Positions 13,978 through 56,298 of a DNA stretch of 64,000 nt are shown in pieces. A program made the translations under genes and the position numbers. The notes under the pieces were generated by a model. That model had not been told where the DNA came from and did no database searches. It saw nothing but the letters and a program-made list of their open reading frames with translations. The stretch's first letter is position 1, and each line of letters begins with the position of its first letter. The stretch is from Stegostoma tigrinum (lineage: Eukaryota): the NCBI RefSeq assembly GCF_030684315.1, contig NC_081356.1, positions 64,092,835 to 64,156,834 on the forward strand, given 5' to 3'.

Positions 13978-14176
13978 GATAGTAGGAACTGCAAATGCTG
14001 GAGAATCTGAGATAACAAGGCGTAGAGCTGGATGAACACCCTAGGCCAAGCAGCATCAGAGGAGTAGGAAAGCTGACATTTCGGGCCTGGACCCTTGTTC
14101 AGAATGGGCCTTCTTTGTGAAGAAGGGTCTAGGCCCGAAATGTCAGCCTTCCTACTCCTCTGATGCTGCTTGGCCC
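13978..14176. mobile_element. PLE-derived hairpin mini-element
   Basis: Inverted copies of the Neptune 3' end with the apex just upstream of the hammerhead-like core (gtgaagaagggtctaggcccgaaatgtc). Confidence 0.85.
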
Positions 14177-14449
14177 GATTGTAAAGGATTGGTAGTCTTA
14201 TTCCACAATCTTCTGGAAAATGGGTTTTTGGGTCCAGGGAACTTATCACAGTTTAGCCCTGTTTAATTTCCCCAGTAATGCTTTTACTTACTGATTTTCA
14301 GTCCCTCATTCCTATTAGGTTCTTGACTCTGGTATTCATGGGAAAGGTCCTTGTATCCTACTTCATGATGGCAGTCAGGCCTGTTCCTCAGTATAAGCTG
14401 CCTTGTTTCTGTCTGTAATGCACTTGCTTTTTCTTAAATAACTTTATCT

Positions 14450-16133
14450 AGAAAAGCTAAAAGGTCTAAAAATTGATAAATCTCCTGGCCCCGATGGGCT
14501 ACTACCTAGAGTTCTGAGGGAGGTGGCTGAGGAAATAGCGGAGGCTTTGGCTGTGATCTTCCAAAAGTCACTGGAGTCTGGGAAAGTCCCAGATGTTTGG
14601 AAAATTGCTGTTGTAACCCCCTTGTTTAAGAAAAGATCAAGGCAAAAGATGGAAAATTATAGGCCAATTAGCCTAACCTCGGTTGTTGGTAAAATTCTAG
14701 AATCCATTGTTAAGGACGAGATTTCTAAATTCCTGGAAGTGCAGTGTCAGATCAAAACAAGTCATCATGGGGTGGGGGGGGGTGCTGCTGCTGAGCAAGA
14801 TGAGGGCTCATGGTGTTCGAGGTGAGCTACTGGCTTCGATTGAGGATTGGCTGCCTGACAGAAGGCAGAGAGTTGGGATAAAAGGCTCTTTTTCAGAATG
14901 GTGACGAGTGGTGTCCTGCAGGGTTCAGTGTTGGGGCTGCTGCTGTTCACCTTTTTTATTAATGATCTGGATGAAGGGACTGGGGGCATTCTGGCGAAGT
15001 TTGCCGATGATACGAAGATAGGTGGACAGGCAGGTACTACTGAGGAGGTGGGAAGGCTGCAGAAAGATTTAGACAGTTTAGGAGAGTGGTCCAGGAAATG
15101 GCTGATGAAATTCAACGTGAGCAAATGCAAGGTTTTGCACTTTGGAAAAAAGAATACAGGCATGGACTATTTTCTACATGGTGAGAAAATTCATAAAGCA
15201 GAAGTGCAAAGGGATCCGGGAGTGTTGGTCCCGAATCTCTAAAAGTTAACTTGCAGGTAGAGTCCATGATTAAGAAAGCGAATATAATGTTGTTGTTTAA
15301 CTCGAGGGTTGGAACATAAAAGCAGTGATGTGCTTCTGAGACTTTATAAAGCTCTAGTTAGGCCCCATTTAGAATACTGTGAGATAATGGGAACTGCAGA
15401 TGCTGGAGAATTCCAAGATAATAAAATGTGAGGCTGGATGAACACAGCAGGCCAAGCAGCATCTCAGGAGCACAAAAGCTGACATTTTGGGCCTAGACCC
15501 TTGGGTCCGAAACGTCAGCTTTTGTGCTTCTGAGATGCTGCTTGGCCTGCTGTGTTCATCCAGCCTCACATTTTATTATTTAGAATACTGTGTCCTGTTT
15601 TGGGCCCTACATCTCAGGAAGGACATACTGGCCCTGGGGCGTGTCCAGCGGTGATTCACACGGATGATTCCTGGAGTGGTTGGTTTAACGTACGATGAAT
15701 GGCTAAGGATCCTGGGATTGTACTCATTAGAGTTTTTGGAAGGTTGAGGGGAGATCTAATAGAAACTTACAAGATAATGTATGGCTTAGAAAGTGTGGAT
15801 GTTGGGAAGTTGTTTCCGTTAGGTGGGAAGACTAGGACCCATGGGCACAGCCTTGCAATTAGAGGAGGTAAATTTAAAATGGAAATGAGGTGACATTTCT
15901 TCAGCCAGAGAGTGGTGGGCTTGTGGAATCCATTGCCATAGAGTGCAGTAGAGGCCGGGACGTTAGAAGCCTTTAAGGCAAAGATTGATAAATTCTTGAT
16001 CCCATAAGGAATCAAGGGCTATGGGGAGAGTGCAGGGAAGTGGAGTTGAAATGCCCATCAGCCATGATCTAAATGGCGGAGTGGACACGATGGGCCGAAT
16101 GGCCTTACTTCCACTCCTATGTTTTATGGTCTT
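14450..16133 (+). mobile_element. 5'-truncated CR1 LINE
   Basis: [47 protein letters not shown] and a CR1 3' tail. Confidence 0.95.
15382..15577. mobile_element. PLE-derived hairpin mini-element inserted in CR1
   Basis: About 80-bp inverted arms; 15-bp TSD atttagaatactgtg at 15367-15381 and 15578-15592. Confidence 0.92.
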
Positions 16134-16679
16134 ATCTGCTATAGATACCTATAGAACCTTTTACAGTCTTGCAACTCTTGTATCTGTTAATTGGTTTAAT
16201 AGAATGACTAAGTATAGGTTTTAATCAAATAATCCAGTGTCCTCAATAGTCCTTTGTTTACCATACCAGAATTCTTCAAAGAAGGCTGCCTTATGCATTC
16301 TTTGAAGAAAACTTGCTTAAGTCCTAATGTACATTTGATACTGATCTTCAAATGATTCATCAATGTGCAGAAATTCCATTGGAATTAATCACTTTTTCTG
16401 CATAAGCAGATTTATTGGGTTAGTTTTGGGGTAAAAATTGTCAATAATTGATAACACAATTACCACTTTTTCCTCAGGGCTGTCGGTGTATGAACTCTTG
16501 CATGTGGCTCATGGATTACCTGATACAAAGCTGCAGCTATTGGTTTTGTTTGTAGGTTATCAGTGAAGCGTTATGCTTCTGTTTTGCAGTCTATCAGTGA
16601 ACTGTTATGTTTTTCCTGTGAAGAGGACAAATATGAACATAAATAAGAGCAGAAGCAGGCCTCGCTGCCTTTTGAAGTT

Positions 16680-16938
16680 GTGGAAACAGGCCCTTCGGCC
16701 CAACAAGTCCACAGTGACCCTCAGAGCATCCCACCTAATCTACACATCCCTATACACTACAGGCAATTTAGCATGGCCAATCCACCTACCCTGCACATCT
16801 TTAGACTGTGGGTGGAAACCCATGCAGATATGGGGAGAATGTGCAAACTCCACACAGACAGTCGCTCGAGGGTAGAATCGAACCCTGGTCCCTGGCGCTG
16901 AGAGGCAGTGGTGTTAACCACTGAGCCACAGTGATGCC
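16680..16938 (-). mobile_element. HE1-like V-SINE
   Basis: Reverse match to the HE1 head and tail, with an internal deletion. Confidence 0.85.
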
Positions 16939-17019
16939 CTTGTTCTTCTCACTATAACGACGGTTGAATTTTTGTATCATCACCATTTTTCTGCTGTATT
17001 CCCACATCCCTGGATTTCT

Positions 17020-17430: not shown

Positions 17431-17732
17431 ACAAAACCGAGGTGTCCGTAGTCAAGAGTCTGCATCGAGATACAGATGCATGATGGCTATTGGATACTTG
17501 TGTTTGCTCACCCCAACTGAGAGAGAGCTAAAAAGCAGGTATCCTACAGATAGGCTTTCCAATTTCTTTTTGGCAAGAAAGCCAGACCAGCAAGGATCAA
17601 CACCTTTGGTCACAAAGCCCTCTGGGTGTACAGTGTGCGGATGATTGCAGGGTTGCTTTCCACTCTACACCAAATTTGCATGACACTTTCAAACTCTCCA
17701 CTTCTGTACACAACCAGACTTTGTATTCCATG

Positions 17733-17919
17733 GATAATAAAATGTGAGGCTGGATGAACACAGCAGGCCAAGCAGCATCTCAGGAGCACAAAAGCTGACG
17801 TTTCGGGCCTAGACCCTTCGTCAGCTTTTGTGCTCCTGAGATGCTGCTTGGCCTGCTGTGTTCATCCAGCCTCACATTTTATTATCTTGGAATCTCCAGC
17901 ATCTGCAGTTCCCATTATC
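17733..17919. mobile_element. PLE-derived hairpin mini-element
   Basis: Near-perfect inverted arms of about 65 bp; flanked by ctttgtattccatggat at 17719-17735 and 17919-17935. Confidence 0.92.
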
Positions 17920-17932
17920 TTTGTATTCCATG

Positions 17933-19370
17933 GATGTGAGTTTGCTCACTGAGCTGGAAGGTTCGTTTTCAGACGTTTCGTCACCGTTCTAGGTAACATC
18001 ATCAGTGAGCCTCTGACAAAGCGCTGGTGTTATGTCCCGCTTTCTATTTATCTGGTTAGGTTTCCTTGGGCTGGTGATGTCATTTTCTGCGTTGGTGATG
18101 TCATTTCCTGTTCTTTTTCTCAGAGGGTGGTAGATTGATTTGGAACCAATGTGTTTGTTGATGGAGTTCCGGTTGGATTGCCATGCTTCTAGGAATTCTT
18201 GTGCGTGTCTCTGTTTGGCTTGTCCTAGGATGGATGTGTTGTCCCAATCAAAGTGGTGTCCTTCCATATCTGTATGTAAGGATACGAGTGATAGTGGGTC
18301 ATGTCGTTTTGTGGCTAGTTGATGTTCATGTATCCTGGTGGCTAGCTTTCTGCCAGTTTGTCCAATGTAGTGTTTGTCACAGTTCTTGCAAGGTATTTTG
18401 TAGATGACGTTCGTTTTATTTGTTGTCTGTATAGGGTCTTCTAAGTTCATTAGCTGCTGTTTTAGCGTGTTGGTGGGTTTGTGGGCTACCCTGATGCCAA
18501 GAGGTCGGAGTAGTCTGGCAGTCATTTCGGAAATGTCTTTGATATAGGGGAGAGTGGTTATGGTTTCTGGGCCCGTTTTGTCTGTTTGTTTGGGTTTACT
18601 GCTGAGGAATCGGCAGACTGTGTTCATAGGGTACCTGTTCTTTTTGAATATGCTGTACAGGTGATTTTCCTCTGCTCTGCGTAGTTCCTCTGCTGCAGTG
18701 TGTGGTGGCTCGTTGGAATAATGTTCTAATGCAGCTTCGTTTGTGGGTGTTGGGTTGATTGCTCCTGTAGTTCAGTATTTGGTCCATATGTGTTGTTTTT
18801 CTGTAGACGCTGGTTTGAAGTCCCCCATTGGCTGTTCGCTCCACTGTGGCATCTAGGAATGGCAGTTTGTTGTTGTTTTCTTCCTCTTTTGTGAATGAGA
18901 ATGAATGGACAAACTGGCAGAAAGCTAGCCACCAGGATACATGAACATCAACTAGCCACAAAACGACATGATCCACTATCACTCGTATCCTTACATACAG
19001 ATATGGAAGGACACCACTTTGATTGGGACAACACATCCATCCTAGGACAAGCCAAACAGAGACACGCACAAGAATTCCTAGAAGCATGGCATTCCAACCG
19101 GAACGCCATCAACAAACACATTGATTTGGAACCAATCTAACATCCCCTGAGAAAAAGAACAGGAAATGACATCAACGCAGGAAATGACATCACCAACCTA
19201 AGGAAACCTAACCAGATAAACAGAAAGCAGGACATAACACCAGCGCTTCGTCGGAGGCTCACTGATGTTACCTAGAATGGTGACGAAACGTCTGAAAACG
19301 AACCTTCCAGCTCAGTGAGCAAACTCACATCCAGAACTTCAACCTGAACTACAAATCTTCTCAAAACTCG
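17933..19370. mobile_element. Penelope/Poseidon-type PLE with inverted structure (minus arm about 17933-18896, plus arm about 18906-19370)
   Basis: LPFLD, VYRKTTH, TLPYIKDISE, IYKIPC, YIGQTGRKLATRIHEH (GIY-YIG); the 3' ends of the two arms are inverted repeats. Confidence 0.93.
17969..18008 (-). ncRNA. Minimal type I hammerhead ribozyme motif (Poseidon-type PLE)
   Basis: tca-CUGAUGA-u-GUUACC(uagaac)GGUGAC-GAAAC-GUC-uga: conserved core, 6-bp stem II, 3-bp stem I. Confidence 0.8.
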
Positions 19371-19383
19371 TTTGTATTCCATG

Positions 19384-19446
19384 ATAACAAAGTATGGAGC
19401 TGGATGAACACGGCAGGCCATGCAACATCTAAGGAGCACAAAAGCT
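19384..19446 (-). mobile_element. Tiny Neptune 3'-end fragment
   Basis: gataacaaagtatggagctggatgaacac...ggagcacaaaagct between two copies of ttgtattccatg. Confidence 0.8.
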
Positions 19447-20879
19447 TGTACTTGTATTCCATGATATTGTGCAAACAGAACTGTTGTCAACAAAACCTGA
19501 TCAGTAAATAGTCCATCTCTCATTTTCCAAAACCGATAGATGTTGAAACAACAACTCAAAACAAAACTGTTGTAAAATCAACTACATTGCATTGATACTC
19601 TGTCCTGACGGCCAAAGAGCATCTTCCTTACCAGCGCCTGCTTTTTCTCCATTCCCAAATGGCTGAAGATCCAACCGAGAACAAAGGAAATGCTACAAAG
19701 TCTGATGCCTTTCTTGAAGTACTGTAGCACTGATGTTAATTACTAGGAGTGGCTTGCTAATGACTGTTCAAAATGGGGACAACTTGTTCATCAAGTTGTA
19801 TTGTGCTTAGAGTCTGAATATCTCAATGTTGAAGCAGAGAAGGAAAGCAAAGAAAGTGAACTCCATGTTCTGGATCTCACTGTCTTGTGGGACATCCTGT
19901 CCCATGTGCCTGTATATCTGTGGGGTGAGAATTGGCCTGTTCAGTGCATGAGGACCACAGTAGAAAATCCCTGATGTAAAATTTAATTGTGAAACCTGCA
20001 TTCAGGCCCAATCTAAAGGTTTGATAATACTCATTAGTTTTGAGGCCTATTCAAATATCCTTGCTCAAGTTCCAAAGTATGAATTACATTTATCAAAAAC
20101 ATTGATATTTCAAACAACAGACTCCACCACATTACAATAAAATACTGGCTGTCAACTTCCAGCTCCTTCATATATTGTGTTGATTTAACATTGTTCCTTT
20201 GTATTCTGTCTTTCTGAAGACTGTACAACTGTGACTGGTATTAACCCTCGCTGGCCACTGTCTGCTGTGCATGATCAGAAGCACCCTGAACACTAGTTGG
20301 CTTGTTAATGCATTTACAGTGAATGAATGATCATTAGTCAGTCTCATTTTGGTTAAAGAGTATGTTTCCATTTTTTTCATGATTGGTTTCTTTAAAAGTA
20401 ATAGAAAATTATGCCACGAAGAATACTGTCATTGGTTTCCCAAGATGTCCATTTTTCATGATGTCAAAATTATAATTTATTTTTGTAACTTCTCACTAAG
20501 TTAATAGGACATTTTACAATATCATCAGGATGGGAGGATATATTTGGTGATGCTCTTATGATATGTACTCCAAGATCATCATTTTCAGGTTGACTTGATT
20601 GGTGAGAGGATCTTATTAAATTGAACAGCTTATCAGTGGCCTTTCATTTTTATGAGGCCATCTGCTGGGGAGTATGTTTTTGAGTTGGTATTGGTAGTAG
20701 AAATAGTTACTTTGTTCCCAATAAATGGTAAGGTTGCAGACAACCTTAAAACAATCCTGAAGAAAAGACACGTTCTGTCAAAGCTTGTCATCTTGCATTC
20801 ATCAGGACAGTTCTTGAGAACCAGTGCAATGGGGAAAACCAGCACTTTGACAACATGAGAGGCATGTCAAGGCATTATT

Positions 20880-27055: not shown

Positions 27056-27331
27056 AAGTGAATCATTATTCATGTAATATCTGGAAAGTAGATATTGTGC
27101 TGATTTATGAAAATTAATCTTCAAAAAAGTTTAATGTTTTAATTTGTCCTTCTTACTCAGAGAGCACTTTGTACCCTTGTCCTCCATTTCAGATGTAATG
27201 TAACTGTTACAACATGGAGAGAGACAGGCAAACCAAAGCGGCCTTTCTACCTCTGTATTTGCAACACAGTAAAATTAAACCACTGAAGACTCTCATTACT
27301 TTGACCAGTGGCTCCTAACTAGACTGAAGTT

Positions 27332-27458
27332 TCTGAGAAAGGGTTACCAGACCCGAAACGTTAACTCTGTTTTTTCCTCCACAGATGCTACCAGACCTGC
27401 TGAGCTTTTCCAGCAACTTTTTGTTTTTGTTCCTGATTTACAGCATCCGCAGTTCTTT
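27332..27458 (+). mobile_element. PLE 3' end (second Neptune-like subfamily), starting at the ribozyme motif
   Basis: ctgagaaagggttaccagacccgaaacg...cagcatccgcagttc; homologous to 49060-49224 and 36030-36160. Confidence 0.7.
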
Positions 27459-27519
27459 ACTTATTTTAACAAAAAACAAATCTGATGTCTATTTTCTAAA
27501 CCTGAAACATGCGCTTTCA

Positions 27520-27862: not shown

Positions 27863-28079
27863 GATAGCAAGAACTGCAGATGCTGGAGTCAGGGATAGTA
27901 CAGTGCGGATCTGCAGGAAGCAGGCCAGACAGCATCAGAAGAGCAGGAAAGTTGACATTTCGGGTTGGGACTCTTCTTCAGAAATAGGCCAGTTTCTGAA
28001 GAAGGATTCCGATCTGAAACATCAACTTTCCTGCTCTTCTGATGCTGCTTGGCCAGCTGTGTCCCTCCAGCTCTGTACT
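27863..28079. mobile_element. PLE-derived hairpin mini-element (older)
   Basis: Inverted Neptune 3' ends; the apex cttcagaaataggccagtttctgaag resembles that of 13978-14176. Confidence 0.8.
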
Positions 28080-30950
28080 AGACAACCAAACTGTTAAAGA
28101 ATGAATAAACAAAGATAACAAAACTGGCCACATTCCTTAAATGGCTGTCACAATGCAATGTTTCACAGGCATAGATGTGGACTGCACAGTTGCTTTTCTG
28201 GTGCTGACTGTCAGGATCACCTCATTCCATTCAGACAAGGCTAATAATACTTCCCATTCATCTTTCTGTGCTTCCCAAAGTTGGTGTAGCAGATTAAGCA
28301 GCGAGCTTTCAAATCTTCATGCTGTGTTGTCAGCAGCAAAGCTCATCTCTTTCAGAAAATACAGCTCAGACAAAACTCCAACTCTGGTTTTGCCCCGATA
28401 GATTGAATATCTTTTCCCAAGGCTTCAATTGCAATTCAGCATCAACCATCTGCTTGAACATGAGGTTCCTTTTAAATTTGCTTGAACTAATTTCCTGGTC
28501 CTGACCTCAGTAATAATCAACTTCCGCTATCTGTTTAAGTGCAATGCTCTTCCCAGGGTCAGTGTGTATGTAGGAGCTCTCTTAATCAAACTTGGCCTAC
28601 AGTACAGTTAACTTCTAGGTCTATTCTCACAAACAAACAAAGACTTAATGGTCTGTTCTTTTCCTTTTACGACAAGCTATTTCAAAAAGACCATAAATAA
28701 TCCTCAGCTTACAATTGCCAGTTCACAGCTCCATACAAAAATTGATAAAAGAATAAAAACAAAAATCAGTGACGATTCCAACACAAGTAACTTAACTCCA
28801 TTTACTGATCATCTTAACTGTACCTTCTCCTCCATTGGGAAAATTTTGTTCCCTCATACAGTTCCCATTGGCAATTTACAGAACATCTCATCAAGTTTGA
28901 CCTCAATACTAAATTGATCATGCATTAGAATATTGTTATTAGAAGAATAAATCCATTTCACACTGGTTGTATAAAGGAATGTGACTTGAGTATGGTAGTC
29001 TGTTGAGAAAATAGGCAGTTATATGAACAATGGAGGTAAAGTTTGAATCCCTGCTTTACATTTTTACTGTTGGTGCTGAAATTATGTTTTACACTCTTCA
29101 ACTTTCATTTTCCATATGCTGCTTTGTTTACTTTGTTGCTGAAGAAATTCTTGATCTTCCTGCTTGATAACATCAACTTCTGTTTCCATTTCGATGATAT
29201 GAATTTGAGGGTTACCAGGCTCCTGAAGTGTTTTAGATCGACCATGACCTGGAGTATTATTGCTTCCTCCGTTCCTGTGTCATTTGAAAATAGTGCTTTC
29301 CATTGTAATAGTAATATCTAAACTTCTAACGCACTTGTGTGATCCTAACTGCTGTGCCCTATATCTGCTGAAATTGAATGGACTTCCCCAGCTGGCTCAG
29401 GAAAAGAACTCCAGTGCAATCTCCATTTATCTCTTCTGGGCAATTTCGGCCTCCTTTCCATGTCAACTCAGTTCCTTCACTCTTTGTACTTTTAGAGATA
29501 TTTTTGGGAGACCTAATGTTGATGTTTAAGTTTGAAACATACTTAGCATAACAAAAGAGATTCTAAAAATAAAGAAACGTACTGTAACCATTTCATTTGG
29601 CATTGTCCCAAAATGCACCTCCTAGTGCAGTCTTATTTTTAGTTGTACCTTTTGTGTTCAGACCCTCAATAATTTCAGAATAGTTCATCAAGCTGGAGGT
29701 TCATGGATAAGCTGATTTTAAAAAGAGTACATCAAAAACGCGGCTACATTTTAGTGAGGAAAAAATCCTTATTTTTATCTTCATGTCTTTGTTACAGGTT
29801 GACTTCACTCATTCTCCTCAAATACACCTTTGACATTTTTTCATTGATGGACAGCGCTGAGTCACGTGCAACAATCTTTTCAAATTACTCAAATGTCCTC
29901 AGAATCAACTTATAGACTTCCACAAAGTGTCAGCATTCTTCAGCCCTTAATTTCTCATCAATGAAATTTTTAAAAAATTCCTTGTCTTCAGTGCCACTTT
30001 CTGTTGTGTATTGCATGGAGGAAACTCACTGTGTGTATGCCTAGCAGCTATTTTATATGAACTAAAAATATTCATACTTCCCAGCGGAAATTACAATATA
30101 ACAAAATGCTCAGATCTTGCCATCGATACAAATATTATTATGTGAAGTATTTAATTTTTCATTTCAAGAAATGTTCATTCCGCTGAACTATATATTCTCC
30201 TTGTTCTGTTCTTTTGCGATCATCTACATCGTTCCTTAGTGTGTTTGGTCCTTAATTTAGTATTGCTGTTTTTTTTGTGCCTTTGACATCATTATTGCCT
30301 AAATGGACCATGACGGGTTCTAGAGGCTCAGCTATTCACACATTGTTTGAAAAAAAAAGTTGATTTACCTCTATACTTTGTTCTCTGTGCCATTGCCACT
30401 TCTTCGTGTAATCACATTAATATTGCATATTTTTGTTTTTAAGAGTCTGATTGTACTTTGACTTAATTTCATACATTTTGGAGCCACAACTTTTCCCCTT
30501 TAGTAATATACTATGTGATGGTTTCTCCAAAAAAAAAGGTTGAGCTATCTTTACAAATCCATGCTAACTCCATTCAGCTGTTTGTTCTGGACTCTGGGTG
30601 CTCACAGTGCAATCAAGGAAAGACTGTCAGGCCTGTAATTTTCTGATTCATTCCTTCCTGCACTCTTGAGCAGAGATGGAGCATTTAAAGATTAAGGACA
30701 GGCTTTGGATGCATGTAATTTAAGAATGAGAAATAGATGAACTTTCTTCAAAAGCAACTTTATAATGAGATTAGAAGAAAAACTTACGACCCGGTAACAA
30801 CAGTGACTGTTTTATTGGTTAAAGAAACGTTAGGCTTCATCTTACAACTAAGGCATTTCAGCTTAATCCTCCTGTAATATCTTAAAATGACAGAGGTACG
30901 CAGCAAATATTTTGGAGTTTATATCAGTGTGAAATAGTTTTTTGTTTCAG

Positions 30951-36029: not shown

Positions 36030-36160
36030 AAACTGAAAAGAACTGTGGGTGCTGTAAATAAGAAACAAAGACAGAATTTGCTGGAAAAACTTAGCAGCCC
36101 TGGCAGCATCTGTGGAGAGAAATCAAAATTAATGTTAGAGTCCTGTGACTCTTTCTCAGA
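36030..36160 (-). mobile_element. PLE 3' end (second subfamily)
   Basis: Reverse complement of 27332-27458. Confidence 0.7.
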
Positions 36161-38009: not shown

Positions 38010-38570
38010 AATGTAAAAGCAAACTGTGGCAGGACCTGGAAATCTGAACCAGAAGTGCTGAAAATGGGCAAACACAGAAGTCAGATTTCAGCATCAGTGG
38101 AGTAAACCAAGATTTGAACATTCTAGGCATTGTTTCTCATCAGGATCCAAAAGTATTACACATGAGCAGCTTGTAAGGTATGTAGTGAGGGAAAGGAGAA
38201 AGGGCAACAAAGTGCCAAAAAATGGGGGGGAAAAAAACAGCTGTAAAGCAGTTTGGTGGAGAACTGGATATTGTTAATTGACAGAAGTGATAATAGTGTG
38301 AGGCAAAAGGAGATATGATGAGTACATAGAGAAATAAGAGATCAGAGAATGTGTGAATAATTAAAGTAGGCCGGTTAAATTAGGTTGGTTATTGAAAACC
38401 TGGCAAAGGCCTCAGTGGTCCAAGACTCTGGAAGGGAAGAAAGCACTATTGAAGACTAGTTTAAGATCAGTTGCAAAATATCTTGGTGGGAAAAAAGCAT
38501 TTTTGTTTCTCCAAACTGTATTGAGCCTCATTGGGACAGCATAGAATTACAAGTATGCTAGAGCAGGATA
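38010..38570 (-). mobile_element. Very old PLE 3' fragment
   Basis: Layout and degenerate similarity to 10155-10660. Confidence 0.4.
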
Positions 38571-38668: not shown

Positions 38669-39232
38669 GGATAACAAGGTGTAGAGGTGGATGAACACAA
38701 CAGGTGAAGCACCATCAGAGGAGCAGGAAGGCTGGCATTTCGGGCCTAGACCCTTCAGAAATGGGAGAGGGGAAGGGGGTTCTGAAATAAATAGGGAGAG
38801 AGAGGGAGGCGGATAGAAGATGGATAGAGGTGAAGATAGGTGGAGTGGAATCAGACCGGTCAAAGGAGGCGGGGATGAAGCCAGTAAAGGTGAGTGTAGG
38901 TAGGGAGGAGATGTCAGTTCAGGGAGGATGGACAGGTCAAGGAGGTGGGATGAGTTAGAAGGTAGGAGATGGAGATGGGGCGTGAGTTGGGAGGAAGGAC
39001 AAGTTAGGGAGGCAGGGACGAGCTGGGCTGGTTTTGGGATGCGATAGGGGGAGGGGAGATTTTGAAGTTTGTGAAGTCCACATTGATACCATTGGGCTGC
39101 AGGGTTCCCAAGCGGAATATGAGTTGCTGTTCCTGCAACCTTCGAGTGGCATCGTTGTGGCACTGCACGAAGCCCAGGATGGACATGTCTGAGGAATGGG
39201 AAGGGGGTAGTTGAAATGGTTCGGAACTGGGA
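38669..39232 (-). mobile_element. Neptune-type PLE 3' fragment
   Basis: ATRRLQEQQLIFRLGTLQPNGINVDF and the same 3' UTR as the 39979-42232 copy. Confidence 0.92.
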
Positions 39233-39981
39233 ACCATTGTGAAATTTAAAATGAAATTTCACCCAGTCGTGGTTGGTCCTATTAAAATAGAATGTATTGT
39301 TGGGGCAGGAAGTGACTTGGGTGGTTGGAGTGAGATCTTTTTTTTTTCTCTTTGCCATGCTCTGTTCCTCAGGCTTCTTTTGATAAAGGGTAATGTCTGT
39401 AATATTGAATATTTGCCTCTTTCCACGGAGGCTGTGCCTAGTTTGTGGTACTAGCTTACCTCCACCTAATTTTCTTGTATAATTTGTATTTTCAAGAGTC
39501 CCCTGATCAATTTAAGGACCAATAACAAATATTAATCATCATTCAGAGTTAGGAAAAAAAGTAGAGTACTGTGCCAGTACACACTAACCTTCGAGCTCTG
39601 ATCATTAGTCAAAGGCTGACTTGGATCTCTCACCATGAGCATTGTTCATTAGACAGAAGAATACAACTGACTTGTACATAATTTTCAACAATTTGTAATA
39701 GCCTTTCATCAGAGTGGCTAATGCTACAACAATTAGGTGCTTAGATTTTTCTGTTGCTTAAAGGCTACGAATTTCATGGCAAGCCCCATAAGAGCAGTTT
39801 GTGTGAAAATAATTGTCAGTCTGCATGATATCTTTTGACATCCCATGCTTGTTTTTTCAGTTTCCCAATGCTCATCCTGTTTGCCTCTTTTATTCCTTGT
39901 TGATTTTTTTCTTTTCAGATCAATTATTTTTCCCTCAAGGAGTTTTCTCTCCTAACTTTACAAATAGGAACAGAGTGCGCA

Positions 39982-41883
39982 GTGGTAGTATGGCGTACTG
40001 ACCTCTACATCGCCGAGGCCAGACGCCAACTTTCCGACACCACCTCCTACCGCCTCCTCGATCATGACCCCACACCCGAGCACCAAACCATCATCTCCAA
40101 CACCATTCATGACCTCATCACCTCAGGGGACCTCCCACCCACAGCCTCCAACCTCATTGTTCCCCAATCCCGCACGGCCCGTTTCTATCTCCTTCCCAAA
40201 ATCCACCAACCTGCCTGCCCCGGTCGACCCATCGTCTCAGCCTGCTCCTGCCCCACCGAACTCATCTCCACCTATCTGGACTCCATTTTCTCCCCTTTGG
40301 TCCAGGAACTCCCCACCTATGTCCGTGACACCACCCACGCCCTCCACCTCCTCCAGGACTTCCAATTCCCTGGCCCCCAACACCTCATATTCACCATGGA
40401 CGTCCAGTCCCTGTACACCTGCATTCCGCATGGAGATGGCCTCAAGGCCCTCCGCTTCTTCCTGTCCCGCAGGCCCGACCAGGCCCCCTCCACCGACACT
40501 CTCATCCGCCTAGCGGAATTCGTCCTCACACTCAACAACTTCTCTTTTGACTCCTCCCACTTCCTACAGACTAAGGGGGTGGCCATGGGCACCCGCATGG
40601 GCCCCAGCTATGCCTGCCTCTTTGTAGGTTACGTGGAACAGTCCATCTTCCGCACCTACACAGGCCCCAAACCCCACCTCTTCCTCCGGTACATTGATGA
40701 CTGTATCGGCGCCGCCTCTTGCTCCCCAGAGGAGCTCGAACAGTTCATCCACTTCACCAACACCTTCCACCCCAACCTTCAGTTCACCTGGGCCATCTCC
40801 AGCACATCCCTCACCTTCCTGGACCCCTCAGTCTCCATCTCAGGCAACCAGCTTGTAACTGATGTCCATTTCAAGCCCACCGACTCCCACAGCTACCTAG
40901 AATACACCTCCTCCCACCCACCCTCCTGCAAAAATTCCATCCCCTATTCCCAATTCCTCCGCCTCCGCCGCATCTGCTCCCACGATAAGACATTCCACTC
41001 CCGCACATCCCAGATGTCCAAGTTCTTTAAGGACCGCAACTTTCCCCCCACGGTGATTGAGAACGCCCTTGACCGCGTCTCCCGCATCTCCCGCGACACA
41101 TCCCTCACACCCCGCCCCCGCCACAACCGCCCCAAGAGGATCCCCCTCGTTCTCACACACCACCCTACCAACCTCCGGATACAACGCATTATCCTCCGAC
41201 ACTTCCGCCATTTACAATCCGACCCCACCACCCAAGACATTTTTCCATCCCCTCCCCTGTCTGCTTTCCGGAGAGACCACTCTCTCCGTGACTCCCTTGT
41301 TCGCTCCACACTGCCCTCCAACCCCACCATACCCGGCACCTTCCCCTGCAACCGCAGGAAATGCTACACTTGTCTCCACACCTCCTCCCTCACCCCCATC
41401 CCAGGCCCCAAGATGACATTCCACATTAAGCAGAGGTTCACCTGCACATCTGCCAATGTGGTATACTGCATCCACTGTACCCGGTGCGGCTTCCTCTACA
41501 TTGGGGAAACCAAGCGGAGGCTTGGGGACCGCTTTGCAGAACACCTCCGCTCAGTTCGTAACAAACAACTGCACCTCCCAGTCGCAAACCATTTCCACTC
41601 CCCCTCCCATTCTCTTGATGACATGTCCATCATGGGCCTCCTGCACTGCCACAATGATGCCACCCGAAGGTTGCAGGAACAGCAACTTATATTCCGCCTG
41701 GGAACCCTGCAGCCATATGGTATCAATGTGGACTTCACCAGTTTCAAAATCTCCCCTTCCCCCACTGCATCCCTAAACCAGCCCAGTTCATCCCCTCCCC
41801 CCACTGCACCACACAACCAGCCCAGCTCTTCCCCCCCACCCACTGCATCCCAAAACCAGTCCAACCTGTCTCTGCCTCCCTAA
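39982..41883 (+). CDS. PLE polyprotein (RT + Cys linker + GIY-YIG endonuclease), N-terminally truncated
   Basis: FYLLPKIH, GRPIVS, MDVQSLYT, GVAMGTRMGPSYA, RYIDD, CNRRKCYTC, VVYCIHC..CGFLYIGETKR, LGTLQP.GIN; no true ATG start. Confidence 0.93.
   Translation: MVVWRTDLYIAEARRQLSDTTSYRLLDHDPTPEHQTIISNTIHDLITSGDLPPTASNLIVPQSRTARFYLLPKIHQPACPGRPIVSACSCPTELISTYLDSIFSPLVQELPTYVRDTTHALHLLQDFQFPGPQHLIFTMDVQSLYTCIPHGDGLKALRFFLSRRPDQAPSTDTLIRLAEFVLTLNNFSFDSSHFLQTKGVAMGTRMGPSYACLFVGYVEQSIFRTYTGPKPHLFLRYIDDCIGAASCSPEELEQFIHFTNTFHPNLQFTWAISSTSLTFLDPSVSISGNQLVTDVHFKPTDSHSYLEYTSSHPPSCKNSIPYSQFLRLRRICSHDKTFHSRTSQMSKFFKDRNFPPTVIENALDRVSRISRDTSLTPRPRHNRPKRIPLVLTHHPTNLRIQRIILRHFRHLQSDPTTQDIFPSPPLSAFRRDHSLRDSLVRSTLPSNPTIPGTFPCNRRKCYTCLHTSSLTPIPGPKMTFHIKQRFTCTSANVVYCIHCTRCGFLYIGETKRRLGDRFAEHLRSVRNKQLHLPVANHFHSPSHSLDDMSIMGLLHCHNDATRRLQEQQLIFRLGTLQPYGINVDFTSFKISPSPTASLNQPSSSPPPTAPHNQPSSSPPPTASQNQSNLSLPP
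41761..41868 (+). repeat. Three 39-bp tandem units (PTASxNQPSSSPP) at the PLE ORF C-terminus
   Basis: Repeated cccactgca...aaccag units. Confidence 0.85.
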
Positions 41884-42107
41884 CCGGTTCTTCCTCTCAC
41901 CCATCCCTTCCTCCCACCCCAAGCCGCACCCCCAGCTACCTACTAACCTCATCCCACCTCCTTGACCTGTCCGTCTTCCCTGGACTGACCTATCCCCTCC
42001 CTACCTCCCCACCTACACCCTCTCCACCTATCATCTTTACTCTCCATCTTCGGTCCGCCTCCCCCTCTCTCCCTATTTATTCCAGTTCCCTCCCCCCATC
42101 CCCCTCT

Positions 42108-42135
42108 CTGATGAAGGGTCTAGGCCCGAAACGTC
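42108..42135 (+). ncRNA. Minimal hammerhead ribozyme motif (Neptune-type PLE)
   Basis: CUGAUGA-a-GGGU(cuag)GCCC-GAAAC-GUC. Confidence 0.75.
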
Positions 42136-42239
42136 AGCTTTTGTGCTCCTGAGATGCTGCTTGGCCTGCTGTGTTCATCCAGCCCCACATTTTATTATCT
42201 TGGAATCTCCAGCATCTGCAGTTCCCATTATCACAGAAA

Positions 42240-42760
42240 TAGACCAGTTGGTCCCTCAAGCCGTGTATTCTAGATTATTTATTTTACACCCATTTTCTCC
42301 ATATCTTTTGGTGTCGTCAGAAGCTAGAAATCTATTGATCTATGTTTTGAACTTAGCGAAATGATTAAACTTCTACAGGTCTCTGAGTTGAGAATTTATA
42401 AGTTTCACCATTCTGAATGAAGAAGTCCTTCGTCATTTCAGCCCTAAATAACTTTAGTTTTTAATTCTGAGGCTGTGTCCTGTTTCTTAATCCCATAAGA
42501 AGGGGAAAACATCCTTTCTGAATCTTCCGTGTCTTTCCCTTTAAGAATTTTGTAAGTTTCTCCGAGATTGCCTCTTATTCTTCTATAATCTAGAAATCGC
42601 AGGCCCAGTCTCCTCTTGTAGGACAATCTCACCACCAAAGGAGGTAGTCTGGTAAACCTCTGTAACTTCACCTAATGTACGCATATCCTTGCTTACTCAA
42701 TCGGACCAGACCTGCAAACACTACTTCAGGCATGGTCAACCAGCTTTTCACACAAACAAA
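42240..42760 (-). mobile_element. Old CR1 3' fragment
   Basis: RRIRGNLGETYKILKG on the minus strand. Confidence 0.65.
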
Positions 42761-48001: not shown

Positions 48002-48194
48002 GACAACAAGATGTAGAGCTGGATGAACACAGCAGGCCAGGCAGCATCAGAGGAGCATTAAAGCTGATGTTTCGGGTAGGGTTCAGACCCGAAACACGAG
48101 CTTTCCTGCTCCTCTGCTGCCTGGCCTGCAGTGTTCATCCAGTTCTACACCTTGTTATCTCAGACTACAGTATCGGTAGTTCCTACTGCCTCTC
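48002..48194. mobile_element. PLE-derived hairpin mini-element
   Basis: Inverted arms with the apex in ribozyme stem II; imperfect TSD aaaaatatgttca / aaaaatacgtcca. Confidence 0.85.
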
Positions 48195-48409
48195 AAAAAT
48201 ACGTCCAACATCTTTTTTGGCCACATTTGCAACAGCTCTTGGAATCTGAACCTCATTAAAGGTATGATCATGCCATTCTTTTTCATACATGGTGTGCATT
48301 ATGGTATTATTGGTTTTCTTTGCTTTTCTCCCATTGAATACCTTGACAGAGAGAACAAGCAGATCTGAGTATTGATTACAGATGAGCTGTGATCTCTTTC
48401 AGCAGTCCA

Positions 48410-48503
48410 CTGAAGAAGGGTCTAGGCCTGAAACATCAGCTTTCCTGCTCCTCTGATCCGCTTGGCCTGTTGGGTTCATCCAGCTCTACACCTGGTTATA
48501 TCA
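48410..48503 (+). mobile_element. Neptune 3'-end fragment beginning at the ribozyme core
   Basis: ctgaagaagggtctaggcctgaaacatcagc...ttcatccagc. Confidence 0.8.
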
Positions 48504-48987
48504 GTGATCAATTATGCAGTTTTACCTTAGATCCTAATATTTATGTGTGTAAGACACTATTTCTTCCCTCACTAATGATAGGGAGAGACCTGTAGGAAAG
48601 CAAAATAAACTGCATATTCAACCTACTCCACTTATTGAACTTTAAATTGAATTACACCACTCTGGTCCCCACTGGGTGTGTGTTTGAGTGATGGTGGGGA
48701 GATTGTGAAGTTTGTACGGGTTGCTGTTGGACTAGCTGAGTCCTGCGAGGGAGAACAATGGAGGCAATAGAAGCTGCTCTGAGGGTTTACTGTTGGGTGG
48801 GGCTGCAGCATAAGTGTAGGTGAACGGTGACTCTGGTGGTTATATCTCCCTGGTAAAGACAGTTGCAAGATGGATGGCTGGGAGCAGCGAAACAGTGCCA
48901 GGTTGATCAGGTAATATCTAGTAGTAAACAATGTTAAAGCGAGTCTCTGACACTGAGATTTTCACTCCTAATAAAATCATTGAAGCA

Positions 48988-49049
48988 AAATTACTTCTAA
49001 AATTACTTCTAAATTACTTCTAAAAACACAGACTTCTAAACACAGACTC
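48988..49049 (+). repeat. Short imperfect tandem repeat (aaattacttct / aaacacagact)
   Basis: Directly visible 11-12 bp units. Confidence 0.8.
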
Positions 49050-49059
49050 TGTGTAATCT

Positions 49060-49224
49060 AGAACAAAAACAAAGTAGCTGGAAAAGCTCAGCAGGTCTGG
49101 CAGCATCCGTGAAGGAAAAAATCAGCGTTAACGTTTTGGGTCCAATGACCCTTCCTCAGGAACCTTTCCCGGCAACTTTTGTTTTTGTTCCTGATTTACA
49201 GCATCCGCAGATCTTTCAGTTTTC
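49060..49224. mobile_element. Inverted mini-element of the second PLE subfamily
   Basis: Inverted gaacaaaaacaaag / cttttgtttttgttc; 14-bp TSD actc(t/a)gtgtaatct at 49046-49059 and 49225-49238. Confidence 0.8.
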
Positions 49225-50778: not shown

Positions 50779-52662
50779 GAGATAATGGGAACTGCAGATG
50801 CTGGAGAATCCAAGATACCAAAGTGTAGAGCTGGATGAACACAGCAGGCCAAGCAGCATCTGAGGAGCGCAAAAGCTGACGTTTCGGGCCTAGACCCTTC
50901 ATCAGAGAGGGGGAAGGGGAGAGGGTTCTGGAATAAATAGGGAGAGAGGGGGAGGTGGACCAAAGATGGATAGAGAAGATAGGTAGGGAGGGGATAGGTC
51001 AGTCCAGGGAAGATGGACAGGTCAAGGAGGTGGGATGAGGTTAGTAGGTAGGAAATGGAGGTGCAGCTTGAGGTGGGAAGAAGGGATGGGTGAGAGGAAG
51101 AACAGGTTAGGGAGGCAGAGACAGGCTGGGTTGGTTTTGGGATGCAGTGCGGGGGGAGCGGTTGAACTGGGTTAATTGTGTGATGCAGTGGGGGAGGGGA
51201 CGAACTGGGCTGGTTTAGGGATGCGGTGGGGGAAGGGGAGATTTTGAAGCTGGTGAATTCCACATTTATACCATTGGGCTGCAGGGTTCCCAAGCGGAAT
51301 ATGAGTTGCTGTTCCTGCAACCTTCAGGTGGCATCCTTGTGACACTGCAGGAGGCCCATGATGGACGTGTTGTCTAAAGAATGGGAGGGGGAGTTAAAAT
51401 GGTTCGCGACTGGGAGGTGCAGTTGTTTGTTACGAACCAAGCGGAGGTGTTCTGCAAGCGGTCCCCATGCCTCCGCTTGTTTTTCCCAATGTGGAGGAAG
51501 CCACACCAGCTACAGTGGATACAGTATATTACATTGGCAGATGTGCAGGTGAACCTCTGCTTAATATGGAAAGTCATCTTGGGGCCTGGGATAGGGGTGA
51601 GGGAGGAGGTGTGGGGACAAATGTAGCACTTCCTGCGGTTGCAGGGGAATGTGCCGGGTGTGGTGGGGTTGGAGGGGAGTGTGGAGCGAACAAGGGAGTC
51701 ACGGAGAGAGTGGTCTGTCCGGACGGCAGACCAGGGTGGGGATGGAAAAATGTCTTGGGTGGTGGGGTCGGATTGTAGATGGCGGAAGTGTCGGAGGATG
51801 ATGCGTTGTATCCGGAGTTTGGTGCGGTGGTGTGTGAGAACGAGGGGTATCCTCTTGGGGCGGTTGTGGCGGGGGCGGGGTGTGAGGGATGTGTTGTGGG
51901 AAATGCGGGAGACGCGGTCAAGGGCGTTCTCGACCACTGCGGGGGGAAATTGTGGGGTGGTTGAGAACGCCCTTGACCGCGTCTCCTGCATTCCCTTCCT
52001 CTATATTGGGGAAACCAGGTGGAGGCTTGGGGACCGCTTTGCAGAACATCTCCGCTCGGTTCGCGATAAACAACTGCACTTCCCAGTCACGAACCATTTT
52101 AACTCCCCCTCCCATTCTTTAGATGACATGTCCATCATGTGCCACCTGCAGTGCCACAAGGATGCCACCCGAAGATTGCAGGAACAGCAACTCATGTTCC
52201 GCTTGGGAACCCTGCAGCCCAATGGCATCAATGTGGACTTCACCAGCTTCAAAATCTCCCCTTCCCCCATTGCATCCCAAAACCAGCCCAGTTCGTCCCC
52301 TCCCCCCACTGCATCCCAAAACCAACCCAGCCTGTCTCTGCCTCCTAACCTGTTCTTCCTCTCACCCATCCCTTCCTCCCACCCCAAGCTGCACCTCCAT
52401 TTCCTACGTACTAACCTCATCCCCCCACCTTGTCCTGTCCATCTTCCCTGGACTGACCTATCCCCTCCCCACCTATACTCTCCTCTCCACCTATCTTCTT
52501 TTCTTGCCATCTTCGGTCCGCCACCCCCCCCTCCCTATTTATTCCAGAACCCTCTCCCCATCCCCCTCACTGATGAAGGGTCTAGGCCCAAAACATCAGC
52601 TTTTCTGCTCCTGAGATGCTGCTTGGCCTGCTGTGTTCATCCAGCTTCACACTTTAGCATCT
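50779..52662. mobile_element. Neptune-type PLE with large inverted structure (minus arm 50779 to about 51948, plus arm about 51955-52662)
   Basis: Both arms closely match 41040-42232; the plus arm has an internal deletion of about 400 bp. Confidence 0.93.
50878..50905 (-). ncRNA. Minimal hammerhead ribozyme motif
   Basis: Reverse complement is ctgatgaagggtctaggcccgaaacgtc, identical to 42108-42135. Confidence 0.75.
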
Positions 52663-52929
52663 TAGGAGCACAGCCTTTGCTTCCAACTTCTCCTCCAAGT
52701 CTCATTTTTTGAGAGTTGACACACATTACCAATCCTGCACTCCTGCTATAATTGTCAAATGAACATCTCTACTGCAATACTATTTGTACAGGAACAACAA
52801 TATTTGATTTCTGAAGGCAGCTAACTTTGGATATACAGGTAACCTTTCTAAGGTTACCTAAAGCTTGGACAAAAAAAATTCTGAAGCTTTTCTCAAAAAA
52901 AAAGGTGAAACCTTATTCTTGGTGGTGGT

Positions 52930-53560: not shown

Positions 53561-53584
53561 GCTGTGTGTAGTCTGTGAACTGAG

Positions 53585-53785
53585 TGGCGTTAGCACATTT
53601 TCCCAGTGTTTGTGTGGGTTTCCTGTGGGTGCTCTGTTTTCCTCCCACAATCCAAAGATATGAAGGCGAGATTGGCCATGCTGAATTGCCCGAAGTGTTC
53701 GGGGATGGGATCGGATGGGATGCTCTGAGAGTTGGTGTAGACTTGTTGGGCCGAAGGGCCTATTTCCAACTATTGGGATTCTATG
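53585..53785 (+). mobile_element. HE1-like SINE (5'-truncated)
   Basis: V-domain and tail gacttgttgggccgaagggcct. Confidence 0.75.
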
Positions 53786-55429
53786 ATAAGAACAGCTTAA
53801 AAAATTGACATTAATGTGTTGGCTTCGTCACATTCATTTTATTCAATATCCTTACGTGCAGACTGAATATTTTAAAAAAACGAATGCTGTAGTGGAAATG
53901 TAACAAATTTGCTTGGAAAATGTGCTAGAACTATTACAGTGACCTTATATCGCATATTGCAATTTTAATAAAAATAAATGGAAGGCATTTTGTTACAGTT
54001 CAATTGGTAGGAGTAATAATCCAAATGTCTCATTTACTAAAATCACAGTTTTTAGATTAGTGATACATTTTCTGAAAAGGTGGGGCAAGGGAGAAATTGA
54101 AGAGACATTCTTAAGTCTCCTCTGTCGAAGATAGAAACAGATCAGAACGTTATCTGACCCAATTTAAGCTAACAGTTTAGCCCTAAAATAAACTACAGCC
54201 TCAATGGAACATATTTTATTCTCTCAGGCAATTCTATTGCTTTTGCCTTAGCTATCACAGACCTTTGCATAGAAACTTCCTGATACTAGTCTGCCCATGC
54301 CTTTTTCTAAACTGAAGCTGTGCTGCTTCTTTTAAAAAGCACAAACAGAAACTGTGTAACTGTTCACAAGGCATTTAACCAGAGAGAGATTTTGCATGTA
54401 TAATAATGCTTTTGATATCCTATTGTTATTCTGAAGTATTTTACAAGTGAATGGCATGTGTTGCAATGAATCCAGTATTTTATAGGCATATTTGGTATCC
54501 AGCTTACATACAGCAGATGAAGTGAATAACTAATTGAATTTGGCTGTGAAGATCTAAATCTTGAAGATAATACCAAGATAATTCTTGCTCATGCAAGTAT
54601 TGTCATGGATCTTTAGCATAAACAGAATTTTAGTTTAGTGTCATATTCAAGTAATACTTTCAATATTGCAACACTCCCCTCGTTAATGCACAATGTTGCA
54701 GGCTAGCTGAACTTGGAAGGAACTGGAAATTTCAATGACAGGTTTTTTTTTGCCTTTTATCGAATGCATTTGAAACAAACATAACTTCTAGGATGCTTAA
54801 TGCATGAGACAGTAGTTAGGACAGAAGATTAGCTCTTGTTTTTAAATATTTTCTTCTCTGTTTTCTTTTGCCCTGCTCTCTCTTGTCTTTGGAGTTCATT
54901 GCCTTTGATCCTTCTGAACAATTCATGCTGCCTTTTTTTTTTCTTCCTTTGCATCTTTGCAAGTCTCTCTTTTGGATCTAGTGGATTTTGTGCATGGTGC
55001 AAAGTAGAATAGTGCATTGTGGAGTGACAGGGCACCTTCGGTGGTTCCACTTTCGAAGACATCAATATTAAAGCTCTTATACAGATCACACACCCTTTTT
55101 TGAGAATGAGAGCGTGAAATGCAGAACATAAAGATGTTCACTTTGCCATCTCAAGTTTCTAGTTATGTTGCTAGCTGACACTGTAACAACATTTATAATA
55201 ATCTAGAAATCTGTCAGTACAAATTGGCTCTCTGTCCTGAAACACCACCACATAATGCTATATTACCTCTTCCCAGTAACATAGTAAAAAATACCTTAGG
55301 AGTAGGGAGAAGGTGGTGGCATGGAGATAATGCCATTGCAGTCATAATCCGGATGCTCAGGCAAGTGCCTTGGGCAGCAGGTAAAGTTTCAAATCATAAT
55401 TCTGTATTTAAAAGCTAGTCTAATGATAA

Positions 55430-55940
55430 GACATAGGAACAGGAGGAGACCAGTCAGCCCATTGAGTCTGCTGCAACCTTCAGTGAGAACGTGGTTGATC
55501 TGGTGAAAGTCAAGTCCACTTTTTGCCTGTTCTCCCTAAGTTGATTCTCAGATTAGAACCTGTTCATCTTAGCCTTGAGTAAATTTAATGACCTAGCCTC
55601 CACAGCCCTTTGGAGTAAAGAATTCCATAGATTCATACTGTCTGAGAAAAGAAATTCCTGACCTGTCTTGAGCGTGTGACATCTGATCCTATAATCCCCT
55701 ATGAAGAGAAACACCCTTTCTGCATTTACCCTGCCAAGCCCTCTGAATCTTGAATATTTCATGAGAGTCACTTCTCATTGTTCTGTATTCCAATGAGTTA
55801 CAGGCACTGTCTACTGGCAAGACAGTTCCCGTATGCCTAATACCAGTCTAATGAAGCTTCTCTAGATTTAATTAAATGCCAGCATACTTCTTCCTTAGAT
55901 AATGGCCCCCAAACTGTGAATAGTTTTCCAGCTGTATATA
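55430..55940 (-). mobile_element. Old CR1 3' fragment
   Basis: NLWNSLLQRAVEA...KAKMNRF; continues past the PLE insertion at 56105-56165. Confidence 0.7.
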
Positions 55941-55970
55941 GCTTTAGTTATCCATTATGTAATCCATTCT

Positions 55971-56104
55971 TCAGAAATGGGGGAGGGGGAAGGGGATTTT
56001 GAGCTAAATAGGGAGATGGGGGAGGCGGATGCTTGGCCTGCTGTGTTCATCCAGCTTCACACTGTTATCTCAGATTATCCAGCATCTGCAGTTCCTACTA
56101 TCTC
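55971..56104. mobile_element. Short inverted Neptune-derived insertion
   Basis: 13-bp TSD tgtaatccattct at 55958-55970 and 56105-56117. Confidence 0.85.
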
Positions 56105-56295: not shown

Positions 56296-56298
56296 AAT

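Follow-up and report, generated by a model that had tools for sequence, protein, structure and literature searches.

Short head-to-head insertions of a Penelope-like element in Stegostoma tigrinum and their 5′ boundary near the hammerhead ribozyme

What sets the 5′ end of the shortest copies of a Penelope-like element (PLE)? The question is raised by a 64,000-nucleotide stretch of the Stegostoma tigrinum genome (NCBI RefSeq assembly GCF_030684315.1, contig NC_081356.1, positions 64,092,835 to 64,156,834; hereafter, the window), in which seven insertions of 134-220 bp are built of PLE 3′-end sequence alone. A first-pass annotation had recognized all seven as such, and had read them as a distinct non-autonomous class whose 5′ boundary is set by the structure of the PLE hammerhead ribozyme. 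Here we ask where the copies end, whether they form a family, and what kind of event could stop them.

Where the arms end

Positions are given relative to the predicted hammerhead cut of a long PLE (39979-42232, plus strand; left boundary approximate), which is 5′-truncated, carries a 3′ pseudo-long terminal repeat (pLTR), and serves as the reference, being the closest parent-type copy of the young insertions. The cut falls after GUC, between 42135 and 42136, which makes 42136 position +1 and puts the start of the CUGA box (42108) at -27. The minimal type I core (42108-42137, plus strand) runs CUGAUGA, stem II, GAAAC-GUC^AG. By direct reading CUGAnGA, a bulged base, stem II and GAAA are all present, and the minimal stem III, which is palindromic, has the cleavage triplet at its end. 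Helix I is 2 bp only, and no hammerhead match was found among the nine Rfam hits at E ≤ 1. Further downstream the PLE has two 3′ ends, at +64/65 and at +97/99; the extension of about 33 nt between them (42200-42232, plus strand) is the tail, and arms are called tail or no-tail arms by whether they carry it.

The 5′ boundary near the hammerhead is real and above chance. Among 21 arms in the window, 15 have their 5′ end between -35 and +1, two between +2 and +65, none between -500 and -36, and four beyond -500. Under a null of exponential truncation, fitted to the 17 short arms, 3.7 ends are expected in the first of these bands; 15 were reached in 0 of 200,000 simulations, and the chance of none lying beyond -35 is 0.003 under the same null. 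The arm ends come from reading by eye, and the two arms of a pair are not independent; counted per insertion, the most-5′ end lies within -34 to +1 in 10 of 11 short insertions, the exception being the one at 55971. The 21 arms exclude the internal inverted piece of 55971 (5′ end at -81), the two arms of 17936-19370, which end in the open reading frame (ORF), and two weak nhmmer hits at 10178-10281 and 38022-38128 (minus strand; E 0.002 and 0.009). The latter are heavily decayed, pLTR-like stubs; they come from other families, and seem to start at a core resembling a hammerhead.

The main boundary, at -28 to -34, coincides with the 5′ edge of the ribozyme; the wall stands at about -34 regardless of where the arm ends at its 3′ side. 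It is neither the cut site (+1) nor the 3′ edge of the motif. Tail arms (n = 9) and no-tail arms (n = 8) have the same end positions (Mann-Whitney p 0.85). Since both kinds stop at the same place, the boundary is a position and not a length, and a fixed processivity of the reverse transcriptase (RT) was rejected as its origin. A 3′ splice acceptor following a pyrimidine tract (AG at 42084-42085, -50) was considered and rejected, as the ends lie at -34 to -28.

A wider view comes from contigs of four public runs matched to 41870-42289. One of these (X1; 206,719 records) is from the same species; the entries listed for it are the top 24 of 769 loose ends, 15 of 83 joints and 12 of 155 inserts, some entries being left uncounted, and statements about X1 ends and joints refer to these. 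The top 5′ loose end with unrelated flanks is at 42107 (-28), with 909 contigs and an agreement of 0.37. The strongest 3′ ends are at 42199 (501 contigs) and 42200 (1311 contigs), and tail depth extends to 42233. Summed contig depth, which is not copy number and shows a step across the core but not the size of the step, has a mean of 10 M upstream vs. 43 M at 42122-42177 (ratio 4.3; peak-to-peak 2.9), and the peaks upstream of the core are flat at 14-16 M. The best-supported opposite-strand joints of X1 are tail-to-tail: 42199-42232 (43 contigs), 42189-42232 (30) and 42199-42234 (25). No tail-to-tail junction of this kind occurs in the window.

Two further data sets say less. In a run from another organism 27 contigs start at 42105-42107, matching only the 36-nt core of another family, and divergence upstream could explain these starts; another run, with 57 records, gave no usable pattern. 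Among 80 distant relatives, all metagenome contigs, the core lies within 700 nt in 24 of the 63 loci whose match reached the end of the endonuclease. Antisense pLTR copies in these relatives end within -27 to +14 of CUGA in 6 of 17 cases, and four of the six run directly into ORF sequence without a hairpin. In the remaining 11 the end is at other places, for the most part far upstream. No relative was found among viral contigs.

Stubs, single arms and their targets

Each two-armed short copy joins, head to head and in inverted orientation, two stretches of the final 65-130 nt of the PLE; we call these pairs, and the single-arm copies below, stubs. Two of the pairs belong to a young subfamily. 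In the stub at 15382-15577 the tail arm reaches -21 and the no-tail arm starts from -19 after a 6-nt gap (inverted arms of 76 nt, 95%). In that at 17733-17919 the no-tail arm reaches -21/-27 and the tail arm starts from -3 (68 nt, 100%), and the junction sits within a CTGAYG/CRTCAG microhomology of the core. Two others are older. The stub at 13978-14171 has a tail arm to -34 and a second arm running from about -27/-33 to +35 (61 nt, 93%), and the diverged one at 27863-28082 has arms that start at -34 and about -31/-34, the second ending at about +55 (66 nt, 83%). The similar apex noted earlier for 13978 and 27863 is borne out: both fit a blunt join of arms starting at about -34. The stub at 48002-48194 has a no-tail arm to -11 and a tail arm from -20 (55 + 34 nt, 85%). 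The inverted pair at 49060-49224, of a second pLTR family, has a no-tail arm to -28 and a tail arm from about +42, the inverted match being a short stem only (19-nt seed, 89%).

These pairs account for the inverted orientation in six of the seven insertions. In the seventh, at 55971-56104, an inverted piece (reference 42054-42111) is followed by a forward piece (42158-42232); the two share no sequence, and the proposed fold-back does not hold for it. The layout would be a twin-priming-type inversion. L1 twin priming leaves an inverted upstream piece, a forward 3′ piece, a target-site duplication (TSD) and a short microhomology at the internal priming site, and 55971 looks as expected from it. 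The hairpins are unlike L1 twin priming in that both arms copy the same stretch, which calls for two templates or a fold-back. The earlier placement of six fold-back points in or near the motif has also to be narrowed by 49060, where only one arm ends at the core.

Single arms behave likewise. Those at 27330-27465 (27332; plus strand) and 36030-36165 (minus strand), both tail arms of the second pLTR family, start at -31, and the no-tail arm at 48408-48505 (48410; plus strand) starts at -28; the first-pass annotation was right that all three begin at the core. The no-tail arm at 19383-19446 (copy 19376; minus strand), flanked by a 15-bp direct repeat, starts exactly at the cut site (+1). A 560-nt 5′-truncated no-tail copy of the old subfamily (38670-39232, minus strand) keeps an upstream TATA-like region. 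In all, the named copies fall in at least two pLTR families (27332, 36030 and 49060 vs. the rest) and several subfamilies, and none of the seven insertions is a head-to-tail tandem.

Two head-to-head insertions are of kilobase scale. In the one at 50781-52663, which serves as an internal control, the tail arm extends to reference position ~41033-41041 and the no-tail arm starts from ~41052, with an internal deletion, so the junction is inside the ORF. In the other (17936-19370), a copy that we take to be of Poseidon type from its resemblance to that clade, the no-tail arm reaches the RT, the tail arm begins in the endonuclease, and the junction is again in the ORF. With these two included, the tail is found on one arm only in 8 of 8 two-armed PLE insertions of the window; the other arm ends at +65 or earlier, as in 13978 and 27863. 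Since the copies with an ORF junction have the same tail/no-tail build, the ribozyme at the center is not needed for an inverted build.

TSDs were scored against 3000 random pairs. They are clear at 15382 (15/15), 17733 (17/17), 55971 (13/13) and 49060 (13/14), with 3 of 3000 random pairs scoring as high, and one is probable at 48002 (11/13, p 0.023). None was found at 13978 or 27863, where the best repeat is 6 nt (p 0.26). The five TSDs of 13-17 bp reported earlier therefore become four clear ones and one probable one among the seven, and the view that each copy inserted as a unit is supported. At 13978 the left flank (13965-13975) recurs inverted at 14202-14212, 30 bp past the right end, with a 6-bp direct repeat; a template switch may have overwritten the TSD.

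The TSD of 17733 (17719-17735/17919-17935) is the same target as those of 17936-19370 and 19376. Within 17719-19466 there are four direct copies of a target of about 15 bp (at 17721, 17921, 19372 and 19452), and between them lie a young hairpin, the Poseidon-type inverted element and an older single arm, i.e., three PLE insertions of two clades. This target was apparently re-cut three times. The targets at 15367, 17719, 49046 and 55958, and the left flank of 13978, have ATT on one strand in a GTATTC/GTAATC-like context, which may match the preference for ATT-containing targets described for an anole PLE (PMC11167929; here and below, papers are cited for the portions available to us).

Do the stubs form a family? 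The arms of 15382 and 17733 differ from each other at 0-1 of 65 positions, and from the long element at 1-2 of 65, yet their centers differ (-21/-19 and -21/-3). Between the left arms of 13978 and 27863 there are 17 differences in 60 positions, vs. 5 in 35 and 6 in 46 between the two arms within each element. Thus, arms group by element and subfamily, not by left or right position. Copies of a master would have one junction in common together with arm-specific variants; such a combination was not found. The two apex-type joints listed for X1 hold only 2 and 3 contigs, and the shared apex of 13978 and 27863 follows from two arms ending at the same base. With near-identical arms around different centers, and the arms of an element resembling each other most, the notion of a distinct, self-propagating non-autonomous family is not supported, while that of retrotransposition rather than DNA transposition stands. 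We are confident that the stubs are independent products of the ordinary PLE reaction. Since they lack the upstream box described below, they are likely to be dead ends that need a full element each time.

The start of the transcript as a candidate wall

RT copies RNA from 3′ to 5′. A stall at the ribozyme structure therefore predicts ends at +3, and self-cleavage predicts ends at +1. The wall at -28 to -34, which is also met by single arms without any fold-back, fits a physical end of the template. A TATA-like sequence, TATTTAT (42074-42080, plus strand), precedes CUGA by 34-36 nt in all window copies in which this region survives (5 of 5), and is a candidate core promoter; judged by the general consensus, it may be a TATA box. 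It is 28-31 nt upstream of the wall, the usual distance from a TATA box to the start of transcription.

We lean, with modest confidence, to a model in which the pLTR insertions are made separately, and RT starting 65 or 97 nt past the cut runs off the 5′ end of the RNA before the core. The pLTR promoter would start transcription at about -34 to -28. The RT/endonuclease would then nick both target strands 13-17 bp apart, and cDNA synthesis would begin at internal sites, either within the first ~130 nt of that transcript or on one from a solo pLTR. As a PLE transcript begins in the upstream pLTR, the internal start sites would be present in its first ~130 nt too, and starts there would yield exactly the arms of 95 and 130 nt that are observed. 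The cDNA would end where the RNA starts or, less often, where the RNA has cleaved itself (+1). Joining of that end to the target would give a single arm, and joining to a second cDNA, or to its own fold-back via the quasi-palindromic core, would give a hairpin. Trimming would scatter the centers over -34 to -3.

Several X1 features can be read along the same lines. A single G precedes 42104-42110 in 4 of the 12 inserts, which could be a copied cap; 4 of the 12 run from a 3′ end to 42136 (+1); and a head-to-tail joint leads from the tail end back to 42102 (5 contigs; a 131-nt unit). Joints at 42102-42110 would fit template jumps at a capped RNA end, and those at 42136 jumps at a cleaved one. 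In three insertions (17733, 49060 and 17936-19370) it is the no-tail arm that carries the extra 5′ sequence, so one arm cannot be a plain copy of the other: either two cDNAs were made, or a symmetric intermediate was trimmed afterwards. Snap-back of a single first strand without trimming is excluded for these three.

A number of observations weigh against this model. The RNA start as the wall is an inferred step, contigs being unable to show RNA 5′ ends. The shark TATTTAT departs from the TATA consensus, and no TATA box ahead of the core proved to be universal: exact TATAWA occurs at that distance in one of nine distant families (37-39 nt before CUGA in 7 of 10 of its members) and in none of the other eight. 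The Penelope promoter of D. virilis is internal and lacks a TATA box; transcription starts there 46 bp ahead of an intron of 75 bp, the end of which meets the ribozyme (PMC2377424, PMC4209133), so the spacing of start and ribozyme is not universal. The young stubs end at -27 to -3, short of the proposed start, and need trimming; the 17733 junction is also predicted by cDNA snap-back. Mismatches between subfamilies directly upstream may clip the 42107 peak, contig depth does not stand for copy number, and the G of the inserts may be templated by the other arm, as the table does not state the type of joint.

Two motifs upstream of the core in the nine distant families (L001, L006, L010, L016, L017, L019, L024, L054, L071), picked after viewing the data, may be mentioned here. 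AACGG is found 13-26 nt before CUGA in five of the nine (chance ~1.3% per 15-nt window), and CGCG clusters 47-90 nt upstream of the core in six. They resemble MYB and E2F-type sites, hinting at a possible cell-cycle or germline promoter directly before the ribozyme.

The main alternative, which is also the closest to the first-pass annotation, is that ribozyme self-complementarity sets the boundary: the copied core folds the cDNA end back, the end leaves the RNA and primes the second arm, and the tail asymmetry arises later via staggered endonuclease resolution. A variant is self-priming on an antisense template, as proposed for rotifer PLEs. The core is indeed quasi-palindromic, with 22 of 32 aligned columns matching its own reverse complement and a predicted fold as a rod from -27 to +3, and the 17733 junction falls exactly in the CTGAYG/CRTCAG match. 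In published accounts, palindromes at inverted junctions are taken as a mark of self-priming (PMC3846280) and the tail is attributed to endonuclease resolution (PMC8557442). However, single arms and ORF-joined arms stop at the same place without fold-back, 13978 and 27863 join at about -34, outside the palindrome, and the centers of 49060, 15382 and 48002 are asymmetric or duplicated. A simple RT stall would also end at the 3′ edge (+3), not at the 5′ edge. We consider this alternative unlikely as the source of the boundary, though it keeps some weight. The claim that ribozyme structure sets the boundary holds in one part: both in the window and genome-wide, in same-species contigs, the 5′ ends are tied to the hammerhead region. 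Structure as the cause is doubtful, because the mode lies at the 5′ edge, after RT has copied the whole motif, and because single arms with no hairpin stop there too. A role in joining is another matter: as the core is quasi-palindromic and 17733 was joined within that microhomology, the ribozyme sequence likely helps the join.

Could the stubs propagate themselves? Hairpin or monomer masters with an internal promoter would then be re-transcribed and re-inserted by the PLE protein in the manner of short interspersed elements (SINEs). The D. virilis promoter is internal (PMC2377424) and would be retained by a copy that starts at the RNA start, 13978 and 27863 share the position of the apex, one apex-type joint listed for X1 has a summed depth of 141 vs. 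~21 for a single-copy flank, and the head-to-tail 131-nt units do exist in X1. Against this stand the grouping of arms by element and subfamily, the near-identical arms with different centers, and the lack of a dominant apex joint among those listed, and we hold self-propagation to be quite improbable, although some re-amplification of single-arm monomers, or of a few hairpins at low copy number, may occur.

Hammerhead self-cleavage as the maker of the template 5′ end is still less probable as the general cause. Copy 19376 starts exactly at +1, as does the far end of a third of the listed X1 inserts (4/12), but 14 of the 15 in-band arms extend upstream past the cut, and genome-wide the main end is at -28. 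In addition, none of the anole RNA-seq reads started at the cut, and the in vitro reaction did not need cleavage (PMC11167929). Self-cleavage likely explains the minority class only.

Long palindromes are unstable, and the window has long head-to-head copies such as 50781-52663, so one might suppose that the stubs are long inverted insertions whose centers were later deleted at the core palindrome. This leaves the single arms starting at the core unexplained (909 contigs in X1) and finds no intermediate-length copies (-36 to -500) in the window; its probability is very low. Finally, the small size and hairpin shape recall a DNA-transposon miniature inverted-repeat transposable element (MITE), a reading that can be dismissed, as the ends are not mutual inverted copies (the tail is on one side only), the TSDs are variable at 13-17 bp, and all of the sequence is PLE pLTR.

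The parent element and known systems

The product of the long PLE's ORF (39904-41883) shares 95% identity with a Stegostoma protein and 88% with one of Rhincodon. It is a single frame in which the motifs DVQSLY and YIDD of the RT precede YIGET of a C-terminal GIY-YIG endonuclease, the order being RT, CX4CxxC linker and GIY-YIG/CCHH endonuclease. CNRRKCYTC and CIHCTRC are both present, and the C and H columns are invariant. The RVT_1 match (E 3e-5) is under Pfam's own cut-off, and a Pfam scan of five proteins did not find the endonuclease domain; of 943 homologues, some have PF01541. The same layout has been described for Neptune and Nematis PLEs (PMC8557442), and the parent would be an endonuclease-positive (EN+) PLE of Neptune/Nematis type; Neptune alone is the label of the first-pass annotation. 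Three 39-nt tandem units stand at the end of the ORF (41752-41868).

The closest likeness to the stubs is to the inverted, tailed pLTR insertions of EN+ PLEs (PMC3846280, PMC8557442), which have a head-to-head inverted 5′-truncated copy, a tail of 30-40 bp at one end, variable TSDs and palindromic junctions. The stubs differ in having two arms that are both pLTR-only and a sharp wall before the core; neither a positional rule nor stand-alone hairpins of 130-220 bp figure in the available portions of these accounts. The rotifer pLTR has a TATA box and an Inr (initiator)-like TCACT (PMC3846280). For PAc (Poseidon of Anolis carolinensis), in vitro work showed that both strands are nicked, that cDNA starts from two internal RNA sites bracketing the tail, and that the product length follows the template 5′ end; a dimer is predicted, and ribozyme mutants leave the band size unchanged (PMC11167929). 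The tail and no-tail ends of the stubs match these two start sites, as well as the nicking of two strands. PAc belongs to another clade and host, and what is available of that study gives no start site and leaves inverted structures and the genomic 5′ boundary unexplained.

Metazoan PLE hammerheads have the same minimal core in the pLTR, with CUGAnGA, bulged base, stem II and GAAAC-GUC (PMC4209133). Most are single motifs, probably truncated, and Schistosoma has opposite-strand pairs 100-700 bp apart, whereas the stub pairs meet at the core itself; sharks and a mapping of ends do not appear in the portion of that paper available. The non-LTR retrozymes (PMC7229834; bioRxiv 10.64898/2026.07.22.740005) are also short, non-coding, hammerhead-bearing, pLTR-related and PLE-dependent. 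They are head-to-tail tandems with canonical ribozymes and circular RNA, whereas the stubs are head-to-head or single arms with a minimal and often incomplete core. Head-to-tail units each with a complete hammerhead, which define retrozymes, were not found among the seven insertions; a few head-to-tail joints occur elsewhere in the genome, in X1. Our literature search found no description of shark PLE hairpin stubs or of their 5′ boundary.

Other repeats share the window. In front of a tRNA-like SINE copy, so labeled by eye, at 56178-56612 stands the 3′ end of the same copy in inverted form (84 nt, 74%), and the SINE family is also present at 2745, 9581, 16679, 25972, 26850, 27517 and 53580. 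Decayed RT fragments of long interspersed elements lie at 11701-13162, 56630-57160 and 58770-61134 (RVT_1 E 8e-32 for 59515-60681); they look CR1/L2-like.

The elements themselves are ordinary PLE debris. Hairpins of this kind can be mistaken for MITEs or for microRNA precursors (five of the nine Rfam hits are weak microRNA matches on them) and belong under the parent PLE in annotation. The inverted-plus-tail build, the minimal pLTR hammerheads, the masses of single truncated motifs and the opposite-strand pairs were already known from the accounts cited. What appears to be new is the genome-wide wall, its place at the 5′ edge of the ribozyme, and the proposed explanation by transcription start. 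How PLE inverted and tandem structures form, and what the hammerhead does, are stated open questions in the field (PMC8557442, PMC11167929, PMC4209133). The sharp 5′ wall, the further end at the cut and the pair of fixed 3′ ends lead to predictions at the level of single bases. One might go further and suppose, tentatively, that the stubs are no truncations but run-off products, each covering in full the first ~130 nt of a PLE transcript and made when RT starts within the upstream pLTR at its internal sites, that short vertebrate copies are a fossil map of its start (-34 to -28, with a cap-derived G) and of cleavage in vivo (+1), and that head-to-head pairs come from one dimeric enzyme priming on both target strands with its two start sites. 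If the run-off reading is true, the promoter, ribozyme, tail and inversion of PLEs would be tied into one mechanism.

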